Origin: a virus
Taxonomy: Duplodnaviria; Heunggongvirae; Uroviricota; Caudoviricetes
DNA: 64,000 nucleotides
Reading direction: 5' to 3' (one strand)
IMG/VR virus record: IMGVR_UViG_3300021255_001482
Span: 10,382-74,381 of that record
In this document: one piece after another, positions 32,600 to 38,699 of the stretch
Position numbering within the stretch: the first letter of the stretch is position 1
Layout: every line of letters begins with the position of its first letter
Position numbers and translations under genes: made by a program
The notes under the pieces: model-generated
What the model was told of the DNA's origin: nothing
The model's database searches: none
Seen by the model: only the letters and a program-made list of their open reading frames with translations

Positions 32600-32782
32600 A
32601 TGTCTATTGTTTACAGTGTTATTAGCCCTTTGAAGAACGTTGTTGAAACTCGTGTAAATATTACTAATTTTGAAGAACGAGAACATGGAATTTATTTCAT
32701 TTGGGAAGGTAGCCAGTGTTTTGTAAACTGGAATGTATTGGGCACTTATTCTCTTGTGGAGGAAGATGAAAATGACACTTGA
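32600..32782 (+). CDS. Small hypothetical protein.
   Basis: It follows the promoter at 32539-32568 and a GAAAAGGAGAGCAAAA RBS. Confidence 0.4.
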   Translation: MSIVYSVISPLKNVVETRVNITNFEEREHGIYFIWEGSQCFVNWNVLGTYSLVEEDENDT

Positions 32783-33233
32783 TGGATGCAGAGTGGAAAC
32801 TCAAAAACACATAGAAAAGGTGCGTAAGTATATCCGCTTTTTTACTGATAGATTAACTACTCGTGGTGTAGAGCATGATGCCGCAAAACTAGAATCTCCA
32901 GAAGTGGAACTATTTGCTGAGCATACAGAACAACTTGCCACATTAGAATATGGTTCACAAGAATACAAGCAAGCATTAGAAGCTCTAAAGCCAGCTTTAG
33001 AGCATCATTATGCTACTTATCGCCATCATCCAGAACATTTCCCTAATGGCATTAATGACATGAACTTAATTGATTTAGTAGAGTTAATGGCTGACTGGAA
33101 GGCTTCTAGTGAGCGCCATAATAATGGAAATCTTTTGAAAAGCATAGAAATTAATGCCAAACGATTTGGTATTAGTAATCAATTGACACAAATATTACTA
33201 AATACAGCAAAAATTATGGAAGAAAATGAATAA
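32766..33233 (+). CDS. HD-superfamily-like putative phosphohydrolase.
   Basis: It has the motifs VEHDAAKLESPE, HHYATYRHHPEHF and LVELMADW. A GGAGGAAG RBS is present. Confidence 0.4.
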   Translation: MKMTLDGCRVETQKHIEKVRKYIRFFTDRLTTRGVEHDAAKLESPEVELFAEHTEQLATLEYGSQEYKQALEALKPALEHHYATYRHHPEHFPNGINDMNLIDLVELMADWKASSERHNNGNLLKSIEINAKRFGISNQLTQILLNTAKIMEENE

Positions 33234-33367
33234 TAAACAACAATTAACACATGATTTTATAAAATTTGTGATGGAAAATTATGGAATACGATTAACTATG
33301 ACTGAATCAGATGCAGAAACATTTGAAACTTTATTTCCTGATTTAGTTGAAATATTGGAGAAAGAAA

Positions 33368-33757
33368 ATGATACAGGCATATGAAACATTAAAGAAAAAT
33401 ACTACAGTTGGTTATAAATTAAATAATGACAAATATTATAGGCGCGGAAGAGCATTATCTGTAATTTTAACTGATAAGGGTATAGATGTAAGCGTTGAAG
33501 ATATAGATACACATTATATGTATACTGTGCCATATAATGAATTAATGATTATCAAACCATTAGACGACTTTGATCGTGAATGCCTGATACCTATTAAAGA
33601 ATTTATAGAAGAAGTTGGGACTGGGTGCATAACTGGCTATGATGGCAGCGGTAATTATAGCGATGGAGAATATCGTTATGGCGGAGTAGACTTTCATCCT
33701 GGATTTCTTAAAAATGCCGCTAAAAAATATAAGTATGTGTGTTGGTATAATAAATGA
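33368..33757 (+). CDS. Hypothetical protein.
   Basis: It has a TTGGAGAAAGAAA RBS. The track ORF starts earlier at 33347. Confidence 0.4.
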   Translation: MIQAYETLKKNTTVGYKLNNDKYYRRGRALSVILTDKGIDVSVEDIDTHYMYTVPYNELMIIKPLDDFDRECLIPIKEFIEEVGTGCITGYDGSGNYSDGEYRYGGVDFHPGFLKNAAKKYKYVCWYNK

Positions 33758-33948
33758 AATTTATCTATGATGATAATCTATATGACGCGATGAAAGACGT
33801 ATATGATTATGCTTATCGCGTTTTCTTTGGAAAGGCTCCAATAGATGTTATTTATCGTATGAACCGTGGCTGTAAAGGCGCGGAGCAAAAAGTCCTACAA
33901 TACATTTGGGATACCTATATTGAACCGAAAGGAGAAGAAAATGAGTAA
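33754..33948 (+). CDS. Small hypothetical protein.
   Basis: It shows ATGA coupling. Confidence 0.4.
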   Translation: MKFIYDDNLYDAMKDVYDYAYRVFFGKAPIDVIYRMNRGCKGAEQKVLQYIWDTYIEPKGEENE

Positions 33949-34531
33949 TATTTACTTTACAAGCGACACTCATTTTTCACATAATCGTGGCTTTCTTTAT
34001 GAGCCACGAGGGTTTTCTTCTATTGAAGAACATGATGAAACTATTATAGAAAATTGGAATAAAGTGGTAAAACCAGAGGATGTAATTTATCTTCTTGGCG
34101 ATGCTATGCTAAATGATAATGATAAGGGCATCCAATGTTTAAACAAGCTTAATGGCCGAATCTTATTTATTCGCGGTAATCATGATAGCAATGAGCGCAT
34201 TTATCGTATTTACCATGAATGCCCAAATATTCTTTTTGTAGAGAATGGCTCAGAAAATTTCTGTACAGTTGCCGCAGTTAAAAAGTTCAATGGTTATAAT
34301 GTATACTTATCGCATTATCCAACTTACACCAGTTATATTGAGAATATGGCACCGTTAAAGAAGCATATGTTGAACTTCCATGGCCATACTCACTCAAAAG
34401 ATAAGTTTTATCAAGACATTCCTTTTATGTATAATGTAGCACTTGACGCACATAACAATGCACCAGTGTCCTTTGATGAAATTATTTCAGATATTGAAGC
34501 AAAAGCAAATGAATGTATTGCTATGCTATAA
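33941..34531 (+). CDS. Calcineurin-like metallophosphoesterase.
   Basis: It has the motifs IYFTSDTHFSH, LLGDAM.ND, RGNHD and HGHTH. The RBS is AAAGGAGAAGAAA. Confidence 0.65.
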   Translation: MSNIYFTSDTHFSHNRGFLYEPRGFSSIEEHDETIIENWNKVVKPEDVIYLLGDAMLNDNDKGIQCLNKLNGRILFIRGNHDSNERIYRIYHECPNILFVENGSENFCTVAAVKKFNGYNVYLSHYPTYTSYIENMAPLKKHMLNFHGHTHSKDKFYQDIPFMYNVALDAHNNAPVSFDEIISDIEAKANECIAML

Positions 34532-34540
34532 GGAGATAAT

Positions 34541-34720
34541 ATGTTTAATTTTGAACCATTCAGCGATACGAAAGAAAAAATTAAAAATTTAACTCAAGAT
34601 TTTATTTATCTAAGGCAAGATTTTATTGAATTACAGAAACATTTTCTTCACTCCTTATCCATGACACAACGATTAGAAAAGAAGCGTAAACGCCAACGAT
34701 GGAAATTTTATCATAAATAA
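34541..34720 (+). CDS. Small basic protein (59 aa).
   Basis: It has a TAAGGAGATAAT RBS. Confidence 0.35.
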   Translation: MFNFEPFSDTKEKIKNLTQDFIYLRQDFIELQKHFLHSLSMTQRLEKKRKRQRWKFYHK

Positions 34721-34721
34721 T

Positions 34722-34750
34722 TTGACTCTCTACTAAAATTATGATATAAT
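34722..34750 (+). promoter_or_regulatory. Conserved promoter family member.
   Basis: TTGACTCTCTACTAAAATTATGATATAATTATTACAG. Confidence 0.55.
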
Positions 34751-34775
34751 TATTACAGAAAGTGAGGGAATAAGA

Positions 34776-37083: not shown

Positions 37084-37105
37084 AATTACAGAAAGGGTGA
37101 GAGAA

Positions 37106-37303
37106 ATGAGAATTATAGTTGATAGTTTGCCAGAAGAGAAAAGTGAATGCTTCTTTTCTTATCATAGCTGTGAATATGGATGGCTATGTAAGCTTTATAG
37201 AAGTAAAGAACAAGACATTAGAAAGCGAAGAATGAATCCAGAAGTGCCAAAATGTGAAATTGAAAATTGCCCTTATTTGCGCGAAGAAAGTTGTTCGGAA
37301 TAA
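37106..37303 (+). CDS. Small Cys-rich protein.
   Basis: There is an AGGGTGAGAGAA RBS before ATG 37106, downstream of the promoter at 37055-37083. Confidence 0.4.
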   Translation: MRIIVDSLPEEKSECFFSYHSCEYGWLCKLYRSKEQDIRKRRMNPEVPKCEIENCPYLREESCSE

Positions 37304-37305
37304 AA

Positions 37306-37460
37306 GATGAATGATTGTATTTATTTTGATAAAGAATGGTCAAGATGCCTAGAAAAACATCATCAATGTCGTATTGAACAAAAACAATGTGTAAATTGCC
37401 AGTATAAGGAAACTTATAATTTTGGAGAAAATTTTAGAAAGAAAAGAAAGGAACCAAAAG
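37306..37460 (+). CDS. Small Cys-rich protein (51 aa).
   Basis: It has C..C and C.NC pairs. Confidence 0.3.
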
Positions 37461-37461
37461 T

Positions 37462-37818
37462 ATGATAAATATTTATATCTATGTAGATGATATTCGTGAA
37501 GATGATACCTTCTTCAAGACGTTGCATAACTATACTCATATGGAATGGATTCCTATTATTTGCCGTAGTGCAGACGAAGCAATTTTCTTTCTAAACTATT
37601 ACAACGAAGAGTTTTATAATGTAATTATTGATCTTGACCATGATTTGGGTGAAGGGCATGAAATGAATGACTCTTTTGCTCCTTCTGGTTATGACGTTTG
37701 TAAATATATTGTAGAAAATCAAATTTCACTTATGGGATTTCATATTCATTCTATGAATCCTGTTGGTGTAGCAAATATGCGGCAACTTCTTACTCATTAT
37801 GGATATAAGGAAATTTAA
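37462..37818 (+). CDS. Hypothetical protein.
   Basis: It has a GAAAGGAACCAAAAGT RBS. Confidence 0.5.
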   Translation: MINIYIYVDDIREDDTFFKTLHNYTHMEWIPIICRSADEAIFFLNYYNEEFYNVIIDLDHDLGEGHEMNDSFAPSGYDVCKYIVENQISLMGFHIHSMNPVGVANMRQLLTHYGYKEI

Positions 37819-37819
37819 T

Positions 37820-37993
37820 ATGTATAGCAATGAATTTGAACCTTATCTCAATATTATTGATTTTCTAATGGAAGAAATCAAAAATCTCCGTCGTGAAAAA
37901 TCCGATTTAGAAGAAAAGAATAATGAATTAATTTATCAACTTGGCTATACTCGTAGTGAACTTGAACGATTTAAAGAAAAAGAAAATATTTGA
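37820..37993 (+). CDS. Small coiled-coil protein.
   Basis: ATG 37820 lies just after the upstream stop. Confidence 0.35.
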   Translation: MYSNEFEPYLNIIDFLMEEIKNLRREKSDLEEKNNELIYQLGYTRSELERFKEKENI

Positions 37994-38018
37994 CTTCCTA
38001 TATAATTTTTGATATAAT
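37989..38018 (+). promoter_or_regulatory. Conserved promoter upstream of the RNA ligase gene.
   Basis: TTGACTTCCTATATAATTTTTGATATAATTATTATAG. Confidence 0.55.
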
Positions 38019-38048
38019 TATTATAGTAAGAAGAAAGGAACAAAATAT

Positions 38049-38699
38049 ATGAGAAAGTATGAAAAGATTGATACTCTCTATCAAAGAGACACAGTTGGAA
38101 CTAAAAAGCTACTTCCTGGTGTTTTCCGTGACCCGACTGTAGAATATCTCAGCGATAATGACTGGATTTGGACTGAAAAGGTTGATGGCACCAATATCCG
38201 TGTATGCTGGGATGGCCATACTGTCACCTTTGGTGGCCGCACCGATAATGCTGCTATTCCCGCAGAACTTATTACTCGTCTAAATGAACTGTTCGGCGGT
38301 GAAACTAACGCTCAGATTTTTGAGCAGGCTTTTGGCGAAAAGGAAGTTATTCTTTTCGGTGAAGGATATGGTCGCAAAATTCAGAAGGGCGGCGGCAAGT
38401 ATATTCCCGACGGCGTAGATTTTATTCTCTTTGATGTGCTTATTGGTGATAACTATCAGGCACGCGAATGGGTAGAGGAAACTGCCAAGATGTTTGGAAT
38501 TAAGGTTGTTCCTATTGTTGGTACCGGCCCGCTATACGCAGCAGTAGAATATGTAAAGGCCCATCCCAATTCTGTAATCGCAAAAGAAGAGCGTGAAATG
38601 GAAGGTGTTGTTTGTCGTCCTATGATTGAACTGCGTAATCGTTGTGGCGAGCGTGTAATCGTTAAAATCAAGTGGGAAGATATGAAGGAGCTTGTATAA
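38049..38699 (+). CDS. ATP-dependent RNA ligase, Rnl2-like nucleotidyltransferase-domain protein.
   Basis: Covalent nucleotidyltransferase motifs are in order: I TEKVDGTNIRV (KxDG), III VILFGEGYG, IV DGVDFILFD, V ERVIVKIKWED (KxK). At 216 aa it is NTase-domain only. It follows the promoter at 37989-38018. Confidence 0.55.
   Translation: MRKYEKIDTLYQRDTVGTKKLLPGVFRDPTVEYLSDNDWIWTEKVDGTNIRVCWDGHTVTFGGRTDNAAIPAELITRLNELFGGETNAQIFEQAFGEKEVILFGEGYGRKIQKGGGKYIPDGVDFILFDVLIGDNYQAREWVEETAKMFGIKVVPIVGTGPLYAAVEYVKAHPNSVIAKEEREMEGVVCRPMIELRNRCGERVIVKIKWEDMKELV

Follow-up and report, generated by a model that had tools for sequence, protein, structure and literature searches.

A Ro60-like protein, an RNA ligase and a candidate family of Y-like RNAs in the tRNA-rich region of a Caudoviricetes phage

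A 64,000-nt stretch of DNA from a virus of the Caudoviricetes (IMG/VR record IMGVR_UViG_3300021255_001482, positions 10,382 to 74,381; hereafter the window, in whose own numbering coordinates are given) carries, between two islands of tRNA genes, a cluster of same-strand genes encoding a Ro60-like protein, a cREC-domain protein, an ATP-dependent RNA ligase, a metallophosphoesterase and a DUF5662 protein. Small RNA elements reminiscent of bacterial Y RNAs are embedded in the tRNA islands themselves. We favour, with a probability of roughly 0.55, the interpretation that the cluster encodes the protein half of a phage ribonucleoprotein (RNP) together with an RNA-mending module, both serving the phage's own tRNA arrays. 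An earlier note made from the sequence had proposed RNA surveillance and repair on the basis of four open reading frames (ORFs), all of which are present on the + strand where it had placed them; it had overlooked the genes for cREC (37462–37818) and for a Band-7 protein (31521–32495).

The ORF at 35471–37006 (+) encodes a predicted RNA-binding protein whose modelled fold, and not its sequence, is Ro60-like. Its N-terminal two thirds match Pfam DUF2828 (E = 1e-28), its C-terminal von Willebrand factor A (vWA)-like part matches DUF7788 (E = 9e-36), and the ORF matches PHROG 850, 'RNA-binding protein' (E = 2e-116). The MIDAS (metal ion-dependent adhesion site) motif DTSGSM that the earlier note had read in the vWA part is present, and D310, S312, S314, T380 and D412 are invariant among 33 homologues. 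No match to TROVE (Pfam PF05731) was found at E ≤ 0.1, and neither a single-sequence phmmer search nor a 33-sequence profile matched anything in the PDB; kinship with Ro60 is therefore visible by fold comparison only. In the AlphaFold model (predicted local distance difference test score, pLDDT, 81.4; predicted template-modelling score, pTM, 0.81), a ring of HEAT-like helical repeats is closed by the C-terminal vWA domain, as in Ro60. The top 13 Foldseek matches to this model were Ro60 proteins, all full-length and including the Ro60 of Thermus phage phiLo (E = 1.7e-8); vWA-only proteins ranked after them, at E ≥ 0.01. Structure comparison gave the same order, with scores of 21.1 over 394 positions for Xenopus Ro60 (1yvp_A), 12.6 over 240 for Deinococcus Rsr and 12.5 over 326 for phiLo Ro60, compared with at most 11.3 over about 130–200 positions for vWA-only domains. 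The Ro60 identity put forward earlier thus stands at the level of the predicted fold and fails at the level of a TROVE match, while the full-length Ro60 matches and the lower rank of vWA-only proteins argue against a protein that is a vWA domain only.

This protein belongs to a very large family, of which more than 7,900 metagenomic clusters were retrieved. A further 704 records of cultured phages hold a member, at no more than 39% identity and mostly labelled 'hypothetical' or 'DUF2828'; the holders include Felix O1-like coliphages, Listeria Herelleviridae, phages of Staphylococcus, Bacillus and Campylobacter, KVP40-like Vibrio phages and mycobacteriophages, in the last of which members are already annotated as 'Ro-like RNA binding protein'. 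All six cultured-phage homologues that were scanned against Pfam, among them two relatives of the annotated mycobacteriophage proteins, were DUF2828 plus DUF7788, and none matched TROVE.

By family and by fold, the ORF at 38049–38699 (+) encodes an ATP-dependent RNA ligase. It matches Pfam RNA_ligase (PF09414, E = 6.6e-17) and carries nucleotidyltransferase (NTase) motifs I, Ia, III, IIIa, IV and V, including the catalytic lysine; K44 (in KVDGTN), R64, E105, F128-D129, E185, K206 and K208 are invariant among 32 homologues and align to T4 Rnl2. Against the PDB, a profile of the 32 homologues matched T4 Rnl2 (E = 2e-8) and Naegleria Rnl5 (NgrRnl, E = 3e-3), with no other protein family significant. 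The closest Foldseek match to the AlphaFold2 model (pLDDT 91.5) was again T4 Rnl2 (E = 9e-11, 22% identity), followed by NgrRnl, archaeal Rnl3 and trypanosome REL1. DNA ligases matched only at E ~1e-5, so that the ORF does not model as a DNA ligase, an outcome that the earlier note had allowed for; a separate ATP-dependent DNA ligase gene lies at 54888–56015.

The RNA ligase comprises the NTase domain only. At 216 aa it has the length of nearly all of the 120 homologues listed, and it has no N-terminal extension, hence no Rnl5 OB domain. It scored 28.6 bits against NCBIfam TIGR02307, the Rnl2 equivalog (cutoff 197), and 25 bits against TIGR02306 (Rnl5-type, DRB0094; cutoff 151). Because it is NTase-only and falls below both cutoffs, we file it as Rnl2-like in fold and not as a member of Rnl2: of the original assignment, the family, the motifs and the nearest fold hold, whereas the C-terminal domain and the TIGR02307 cutoff are missed. 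The C-terminal domain of T4 Rnl2 is required for full nick sealing. A 73-aa ORF (38692–38913, +), whose overlap with the ligase stop codon is 8 nt long, neighbours the ligase in nine loci; it has no Pfam or PHROG match, and might replace the function of the missing Rnl2 C-terminal domain.

Three further proteins of the cluster are candidates for processing RNA ends. The cREC (cyclic-phosphate-processing receiver-like) domain protein at 37462–37818 (+) matches Pfam cREC_REC (PF20274) at E = 8.2e-17, with 62 bits against a cutoff of 27; D9-D10, D59-H60-D61, H96 and N99 are conserved among 24 homologues, with the receiver-type acidic residues kept. The calcineurin-like metallophosphoesterase read earlier at 33941–34531 (+) proved sound: it matches Pfam Metallophos and Metallophos_2 (both E about 1e-7, above cutoff) and PHROG 547 phosphoesterase (E = 5e-47), and D9, H11, G53-D54, G79-N80-H81, H125, H149 and H151, the complete DxH, GD, GNH, H and HxH set of the active site, are conserved. 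It is a candidate healer of 2',3'-cyclic phosphate and 3'-phosphate ends. The ORF at 32766–33233 (+), a candidate phosphohydrolase, is assigned by Pfam to DUF5662 only (E = 7.6e-31) and has no sequence match in the PDB; H15, H37-D38, H53, H80-H81, H87-H88, D103 and D110 are at least 95% conserved among 15 homologues, and of these H15, H37-D38, H80-H81 and D103/D110 fit the HD signature H...HD...D. The HD-like label given to it earlier therefore describes the His/Asp pattern, but membership of the HD family is unconfirmed. Its gene co-occurs with the Ro-like gene in 16 loci.

The conservation of gene order was assessed in a neighbourhood set of 80 IMG/VR loci and nine others around Ro-like homologues (given L numbers below where they must be told apart). 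The order Ro-like protein, cREC, ligase is kept in relatives down to 57–60% identity of the Ro-like protein, and in 15 of 15 related loci that bear the ligase it is directly preceded by cREC, with gaps of 66 to 1762 nt. This arrangement bears on the suggestion that cREC and the phosphoesterases do not heal RNA ends and serve instead in counter-defence, destroying immune signalling nucleotides such as cyclic oligonucleotides or molecules of the cyclic ADP-ribose type. The cRec domains were defined from links to the processing of NAD+ and ADP-ribose as well as to RNA ligases (PMC7824862), and genes beside the DUF2828 gene encode PARG in relatives and a Macro domain in a Sinorhizobium phage. Nevertheless, the fixed position of cREC immediately upstream of an RNA ligase, and the absence of NAD+ or ADP-ribose enzymes near the cluster in Pfam scans of the window, make this suggestion very improbable in our judgement.

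RNA ligases recur near Ro-like genes beyond the window's own type. Among 53 related loci with at least 9 kb of downstream sequence, counting ligases within 10 kb, seven have the 216-aa ligase, 23 have a PHA02142-type ligase of OB plus NTase domains (the Rnl5 architecture), often accompanied by an AAA_33 kinase and another metallophosphoesterase, and 23 have neither. (In L007 a protein of 216 aa is encoded upstream of the Ro-like gene, but it proved to be MutH-like, not the ligase.) The DUF2828 gene of Listeria phages LMTA-57 and CKA15 is flanked on one side by a tRNA array and on the other by an RtcB 'tRNA-splicing ligase', so that RNA ligases of three unrelated kinds (216-aa, OB plus NTase Rnl5-like, and RtcB) are found near DUF2828 genes. 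The DUF2828 gene also adjoins a tRNA array in Felix O1-like phage REP7, Bacillus phage Tsamsa, Campylobacter phage F360 and Pseudomonas phage Astolliot, and in the related loci tRNA genes number ~7–15 per 10 kb upstream of the Ro-like gene and ~1 per 10 kb downstream. The placement of a Ro-like gene beside a tRNA array and in the vicinity of some class of RNA ligase is thus a recurrent theme.

These data must also be set against the view that two unrelated functions share one early neighbourhood, in which a Ro/Y RNP recruits a host exoribonuclease (for example, PNPase) and the cREC–ligase pair and phosphoesterases act independently of it. Such an RNP would alter the course of RNA decay or weaken host defences, in line with the proposal for phiLo Ro60, which forms a RYPER-like complex with Yrl RNA and host PNPase in vitro (PMC12135203). 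The loci with no ligase within 10 kb fit this view, as do the separate promoter of each gene and a terminator-like hairpin that ends the Ro-like gene (37021–37050, +; a 13-bp stem followed by a T run), and the presence of the Ro-like protein in virions of a Listeria phage (PMC12282133) hints at a role at entry. However, RNA ligases from three unrelated classes recur close to DUF2828 genes across distant groups of phages, a pattern not readily accounted for unless a pathway is shared; bacterial rsr–yrlA is also located with rtcB and rtcA. We therefore consider independent functions unlikely.

The RNA half of the proposed RNP would be provided by a family of structured elements. Y-like RNAs had been suspected in the window, and they are present there, as a family with a motif of its own. 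At gathering scores Rfam reported no Y RNA in the window; a single sub-threshold YrlA (RF02553) match lay at 46417–46514 (31.3 bits against a gathering score of 69, E = 0.003), and it was from this YrlA-like locus and a repeat family that the design was found. The elements have a closing stem of 7–8 bp, 5'-(W)AGRCNN ... NNGYCU(W)-3', an invariant ACAGCAA two nt 3' of the 5' stem strand, a variable interior and a 3' tail WGA. Most copies enclose plain hairpins. Copies A and B of the window hold a YrlA-type permuted tRNA-like module, composed of T-arm, acceptor hairpin (with the loop ACCA-UUUAU in copy A) and D-arm; many copies in relatives also have the permuted module, and some enclose a tRNA-like unit in normal order. 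Rfam 15 holds no family for the ACAGCAA-stem element, permissive Rfam scans of three relatives yielded no YrlA match, and literature searches found no description of the element.

Family statistics were drawn from related DNA totalling 1.42 Mb. When only the 5' motif, AGRCNNNNACAGCAA, was taken as the starting point, 114 distinct sites were found on the gene strand and none on the other, where chance predicts ~0.8. At 50 of the 114 AGRCNNNNACAGCAA sites a perfect 6-bp 3' partner follows and then WGA, as compared with 1.9 in shuffled downstream sequence. Stem positions 5, 7 and 8 are occupied by GC, AU, CG and UA pairs with no unpaired cells, and the stem covariation score is 0.54–0.58, against at most 0.22 with the partner slid; this score is partly circular, in that the first instances were chosen by a pairing rule and the second set was fitted by the model, and the test from the 5' motif lifts the circularity just for the existence of the 3' partner.

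A covariance model of the family, R1, recovered ten copies from the window, seven of them at E < 0.01 and the remaining three weakly; every one is on the + strand and inside the tRNA islands. In the first island, copy A (28401–28533), with the stem AGACCCA/UGGGUCU, the ACAGCAA loop and the tRNA-like module, lies between tRNA-Val and tRNA-Phe and has a homologue in L011; it was recognized by sequence, fold and motif scan and not by R1. Candidate E follows at 28625–28732 (46.1 bits, E = 1e-7, outside the training set; also found by motif scan), then a weak candidate at 29374–29495 (18.3 bits, E = 0.2) with the 5' motif AGUCGC-UC-ACAGCAA, and candidate C at 29672–29740, between tRNA-Tyr and tRNA-Trp (50 bits, in the training set; motif scan). 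The second island holds candidate F directly before tRNA-Leu(tag) (42665–42736; 66.3 bits, in the training set; motif scan), a weak candidate with an orphan T-arm/CCA piece at 45130–45252 (17.2 bits, E = 0.36; a CCAGCAA variant with a T-arm-like repeat at 45175–45202), and a candidate at 45676–45782 (28.5 bits, E = 1e-3, outside the training set). Beyond these lie candidate D directly before tRNA-Thr (45794–45877; 67 bits, in the training set), candidate B (46395–46515; stem AGGCACA/UGUGCCU, ACAGCAA loop and tRNA-like module, supported by fold and by 24.5 bits, E = 0.0085) and a UCAGCAA variant between tRNA-Gly and tRNA-Gln (48092–48169; 30.4 bits, E = 4e-4, outside the training set). Copies A, E and C have no Rfam match, and no copy besides B matches YrlA. 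Over the window's lineage, where there are about 0.1 copies per tRNA, half of all copies sit no more than 10 nt from a tRNA end, and tRNA processing would therefore release them.

The association of these elements with Ro-like genes was examined from R1 hits or from motif copies read by eye. The copies in the window lie 5.7–12 kb from the Ro-like gene, in the tRNA arrays. A clustering of elements around the Ro-like gene in the window's lineage was considered and rejected: there they follow tRNA density, so that a link to Ro and a link to tRNAs are inseparable. Support for a specific link to DUF2828 thus comes from other groups of phages. Every R1 hit is on the same strand as the Ro-like gene. 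Bacillus phages PK-3 and Tsamsa each have four R1 hits, the last of which ends 82 and 88 nt, respectively, before the DUF2828 gene; in Campylobacter phage F360 two hits end 17 nt before it, and in Sinorhizobium phage phiM12 one hit lies 12 nt before it. Staphylococcus phage S-CoN_Ph13 has two inverted copies of the DUF2828 gene, each followed immediately by three tandem hits; the gene copies occupy 835–2578 (−) and 7977–9720 (+) in the deposited record (L093), and the ACAGCAA elements are partly annotated as tiny 'hypothetical proteins'. In Mycobacterium phages Lolly9 and DirkDirk the gap after the 'Ro-like' gene is filled by three tandem copies. In all of these phages R1 finds the element within ~100 nt of the DUF2828 gene. 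The interval preceding the gene in Listeria phages LMTA-57 and CKA15 is occupied by a promoter and a tandem array of three copies, with hits starting ~190–340 nt upstream, and no other ACAGCAA site occurs in 9.5 kb. R1 found nothing beside the DUF2828 genes of Felix O1-like REP7 and Vibrio phage VH7D.

Bacterial and phage Ro60 proteins are known to pair with adjacent, same-strand, tRNA-mimicking Y RNAs, in a survey that covered TROVE-annotated genomes only and described the 5' motif GNCGAAN0-1G (PMC4201824), and a phage Ro60 binds phage Y-like RNAs (PMC12135203). The middle copy in Lolly9, which has the ACAGCAA and the closing stem, also matches Rfam YrlA (37.7 bits, E = 8e-7) over its tRNA-like core only, and this combination ties the ACAGCAA family to the Y RNA-like RNAs found near Ro60 genes (PMC4201824). 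For CKA15, a multi-omics study in 2025 reported, in the 2 kb upstream of the Rsr-like gene, three unannotated RNAs of very high abundance and suggested that they may be Y RNAs (PMC12282133). A match between these RNAs and the three ACAGCAA elements of that phage is likely but putative. In purified virions the same study also identified the phage's DUF2828 Ro-like protein, CKA15_055, 57% of whose sequence was covered (PMC12282133), so that the protein may be delivered with the genome.

Two tRNA genes of the window are interrupted within the anticodon loop. At 42215–42348 (+) lies a type-II tRNA, scoring 42.8 bits as Rfam tRNA over 42215–42345, in which the loop reads CUUA-insert-AAA, giving Leu(UAA); the insert of 46–47 nt is a hairpin, CGUGGG...CCCACG, followed by ACCA. 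At 30747–30897 (+) the loop of an outer tRNA reads CUU-insert-AUAA, giving Ile(UAU), and the insert is a 74-nt degenerate tRNA-like unit (30782–30852) that ends in ACCA and scores 17.8 bits as a tRNA. The insertion-bearing genes were found by the intron mode of ARAGORN, which over-calls, and by hand. Both interrupted tRNAs are kept in relatives, where changes in the inner and outer stems compensate one another: interrupted tRNA-Leu(UAA) is conserved in six relatives, and both acceptor stems of tRNA-Ile(UAU) covary. The corresponding position of one relative (L001) is occupied by an intact tRNA-Ile(tat), and others have introns of group I size in tRNA-Leu(UAA), the tRNA-gene introns measuring 349–896 nt. 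No intact tRNA-Leu(UAA) or tRNA-Ile(UAU) was found elsewhere in the window, in which UUA makes up 50% of Leu codons and AUA 27% of Ile codons (18 ORFs). Tentatively, and from sequence, tRNA-like insertions in two such heavily used tRNAs suggest a splicing role for the ligase.

On this basis it could be proposed that the ligase matures the phage's own tRNA-Ile(UAU) and tRNA-Leu(UAA) and takes no part in damage repair. The insert would be cut out by RNase P of the host together with a 3' endonuclease, leaving a nick with 3'-OH and 5'-phosphate ends that could be sealed without a kinase. The lack of an intact tRNA for either anticodon, the heavy use of UUA and AUA and the retention of both interrupted forms in relatives all speak for such a route, and the failure of searches of the window to find a kinase fits ends that need no healing. 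We nevertheless consider it distinctly unlikely. Excision and ligation are deduced purely from sequence, and, given the over-calling by ARAGORN, the interrupted genes could be pseudogenes or be processed otherwise; furthermore, the introns of group I size in the tRNA-Leu(UAA) of relatives imply that self-splicing is usual in the group, and cREC and the phosphoesterases would be superfluous. A shade more doubtful still is a broader version, in which splicing of these two tRNAs, which serve the rare codons most used by the phage, would depend on RNase P and on protein, with a kinase-less ligase, and the Y-like RNAs and the Ro ring would form its quality-control arm.

In the interpretation that we favour, an RNP joined to RNA mending, each gene or short gene group would be driven by its own strong sigma-70-type promoter, and the Y-like RNAs would be cut from tRNA transcripts by host tRNA-processing enzymes. 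We infer that the Ro-like ring with its vWA/MIDAS cap would bind these RNAs, probably at the 7–8-bp closing stem and the ACAGCAA loop, in a manner that parallels the binding of Ro60 to the stem of Y RNAs. The variable modules of the RNAs, some of them tRNA mimics, may gate the ring or tether it to factors that handle tRNAs or to tRNAs that are damaged or misfolded. The RNP would cooperate with the end-processing enzymes and the ligase: cREC and the metallophosphoesterase, possibly with the DUF5662 protein, would open 2',3'-cyclic phosphate ends and strip 3' phosphates, and the 216-aa ligase would adenylylate the 5'-phosphate end and seal the nick in the folded RNA. As a result, tRNAs that host anticodon nucleases have cleaved, or phage tRNAs that are defective, would be recognized and then repaired or discarded, and phage translation would continue.

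Several observations weigh against this interpretation. The Ro-like protein is not a member of TROVE at the level of sequence, and its candidate RNAs lack the canonical Ro-binding motif GNCGAA, the invariant motif being ACAGCAA. In the window's own lineage the elements track tRNA density and not the Ro-like gene, and the covariation evidence is partly circular, as set out above. A ligase of either type is missing within 10 kb in 23 of the 53 related loci. The ligase of the window is without the Rnl2 C-terminal domain, its alignment stopping inside the N-terminal domain of Rnl2, and HD membership of the DUF5662 protein is unproven. Finally, no polynucleotide 5' kinase was found in the cluster or in the 64-kb window, which covers about one third of the genome, so that the classical heal-and-seal pathway for 5'-OH ends is incomplete here. 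No ORF with a Walker A motif lies within 27–49 kb, and a tblastn search with the relatives' AAA_33 kinase matched nothing in the window. The window does contain two P-loop ORFs outside the cluster, a deoxynucleoside monophosphate (dNMP)-kinase-like one at 54320–54895, beside the DNA ligase gene, and a 103-aa fragment at 63572–63883 (+), near the window end; they were considered as heal-and-seal kinases and rejected, since neither is inside the cluster. The latter carries a Walker A motif with weak AAA_33-type matches and, as called, is too short for a kinase; it might be a fragment or a split gene.

Comparison with known systems shows both likeness and difference. The earlier note had likened the region to the bacterial rsr–Y RNA–rtcB arrangement. 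The bacterial rsr–yrlA–rtcB–rtcA systems and Ro60/Y RNPs of Salmonella, Deinococcus and Mycobacterium are indeed alike in the toroid-plus-vWA fold, in having small same-strand RNAs with a terminal closing stem and, in some copies, a permuted tRNA-like module, and in having an RNA ligase and end-processing enzymes in the neighbourhood. The parallel does not extend to the components themselves: the phage protein is DUF2828/DUF7788 and not detectable as TROVE, the RNA motif is ACAGCAA instead of GNCGAA, about ten RNAs are embedded in tRNA arrays, and an ATP-dependent, NTase-only ligase stands in the position of RtcB. Pfam scans of the ORFs across 31.5–63.9 kb found no RtcB, RtcA or RtcR, and queries taken from relatives for RtcB (of a Listeria phage), NADAR, PARG, AAA_33 and PHA02142 had no match in the window. 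The phiLo Ro60, determined with Yrl1 and Yrl2 (PDB 9KOP, 9L5Y), differs in that it is deposited as TROVE, its Yrls carry CGAA and no ligase or cREC context is reported for it; its identity to the Ro-like protein of the window is 13–15%.

The ligase shares the NTase fold and motifs I, Ia, III, IIIa, IV and V with T4 Rnl2 and with the Rnl5 enzymes of Deinococcus (DraRnl) and Naegleria (NgrRnl), but it has neither the C-terminal nor the OB domain, and in their place a conserved, translationally coupled 73-aa partner ORF. The heal-and-seal pathways of Clostridium thermocellum Pnkp/Hen1 and T4 Pnkp–Rnl1 are alike in that ends are healed in CthPnkp by a phosphatase of the calcineurin type and breaks are sealed by an ATP-dependent ligase; the window differs in the absence of a kinase domain and of Hen1, and in having separate small proteins instead of a fusion. 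The closest predictions are those for jumbo phages, in which links between cRec and RNA ligases, and ROT/TROVE proteins, were proposed to act in RNA repair (Iyer et al., 2021; PMC7824862). Those systems combine the same classes of component, namely ROT/TROVE, cRec, ATP-grasp-type RNA ligases and phosphoesterases, and share the logic of countering host attack on tRNAs. Unlike them, the present lineage has genomes of about 130–200 kb and a DUF2828-type Ro, with no Pnk kinase, HAD phosphatase or RlaP found here, and no cognate small-RNA family was described for them. Ro60/Y RNPs beside bacterial repair genes, phage Ro60 with Y-like RNAs (PMC4201824, PMC12135203) and predictions of phage RNA repair (PMC7824862) were thus already known. 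New are the Ro60-shaped model of the DUF2828 branch, the ACAGCAA-stem RNA family multiplied in tRNA arrays, and an NTase-only ligase locked to cREC with no kinase.

The window as a whole is low-GC DNA (about 28–43% GC in 2-kb windows), with nearly all sizeable ORFs on the + strand. Its 29 tRNA genes, all on the + strand, form the two islands at 27.8–31.5 kb and 39.1–48.2 kb between which the Ro-like/ligase cluster lies, and which the earlier note had rightly described as flanking it. Megablast of the 7.5-kb region against cultured phages matched nothing and the phage therefore has no close cultured relative; its nearest relatives are metagenomic phage contigs of about 130–200 kb. The conserved promoter family of the earlier account is real: a 52-nt family with the core TTGACT-N17-(TG)nTATAAT has 16 copies within 27–49 kb. 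Six of these are inside the cluster, at 32539, 34722, 35376, 37055, 37990 and 38910, and the cluster is therefore a chain of short units, each separately promoted. Five of the sites, all on the + strand and each an 11/12 consensus match, can be placed as follows: 32539–32567 heads the unit that runs from DUF5662 to the phosphoesterase; 34722–34750 and 35376–35404, both of family D1 with an extended -10 TG, lie downstream of it, the latter directly 5' of the Ro-like gene; 37055–37083 heads two small Cys-rich ORFs and cREC; and 37990–38018, with an extended -10 TG, lies 5' of the ligase. Since the promoter at 37055 falls inside the mechanically called ORF 37028–37303, the true start of this ORF is probably at ~37106. 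The two small cysteine-rich ORFs between the Ro-like gene and cREC, at 37106–37303 and 37307–37465 (+), are kept in the closest relatives and have no family match.

Upstream of the cluster, 31521–32495 (+) encodes an accessory Band-7/SPFH membrane protein (Pfam Band_7, E = 1.5e-26). This gene is syntenic with the cluster in close relatives, and in mycobacteriophage DirkDirk a band-7-like gene lies two genes upstream of the Ro-like gene. Within the first tRNA island, a 'tRNA-Sec-like' Rfam hit at 29581–29664 (32.7 bits) is better read as a tRNA-Tyr(GUA) missed by ARAGORN; by hand it extends over 29581–29668 (+) as a type-II tRNA with an odd D-arm, the counterpart of a tRNA-Tyr in L001. The second island holds a full-length ROOL RNA (Rfam RF03087, 324 bits) at 43300–43893 (+), 6.3 kb downstream of the Ro-like gene. 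ROOL is also found in L006 (12257–12838), where its start lies ~740 nt downstream of the Ro-like gene, with a Y-like element and a tRNA immediately before it, and in L001 (20217–20802); none of the papers searched mentions ROOL together with Ro60. The tRNA islands of relatives further contain drum RNA (51 bits, L001 17664–17760) and DUF3800-XI RNA (57.8 bits, L001 1006–1053), of which the window has a partial match below gathering score at 41909–41938 (33.8 bits). Further downstream, a replication and housekeeping block at 53291–57903 (+) encodes RNase H, the dNMP-kinase-like P-loop protein, the ATP-dependent DNA ligase, ClpP protease and a PIN–PhoH fusion, and is syntenic with L006. Relatives carry group I introns (among them L004 8358–8644 and 4176–4398), one of which splits a PhoH gene.

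Ro60, a major lupus autoantigen, is conserved along with Y RNAs from bacteria to humans. Our analysis ties a very large family of phage proteins, mostly labelled 'hypothetical' or 'DUF2828', to Ro60 by fold, and provides this family with a candidate RNA partner that can be searched for by its closing stem and ACAGCAA. Because the candidate partner occurs in phages of Listeria, Bacillus, Staphylococcus, Campylobacter and Mycobacterium that can be cultured, both the binding and the role of a phage Ro RNP are testable with existing phage–host pairs. The cREC–ligase pair and the interrupted tRNAs, in turn, are leads on how large phages may protect or build private tRNA pools in the face of anticodon nucleases.

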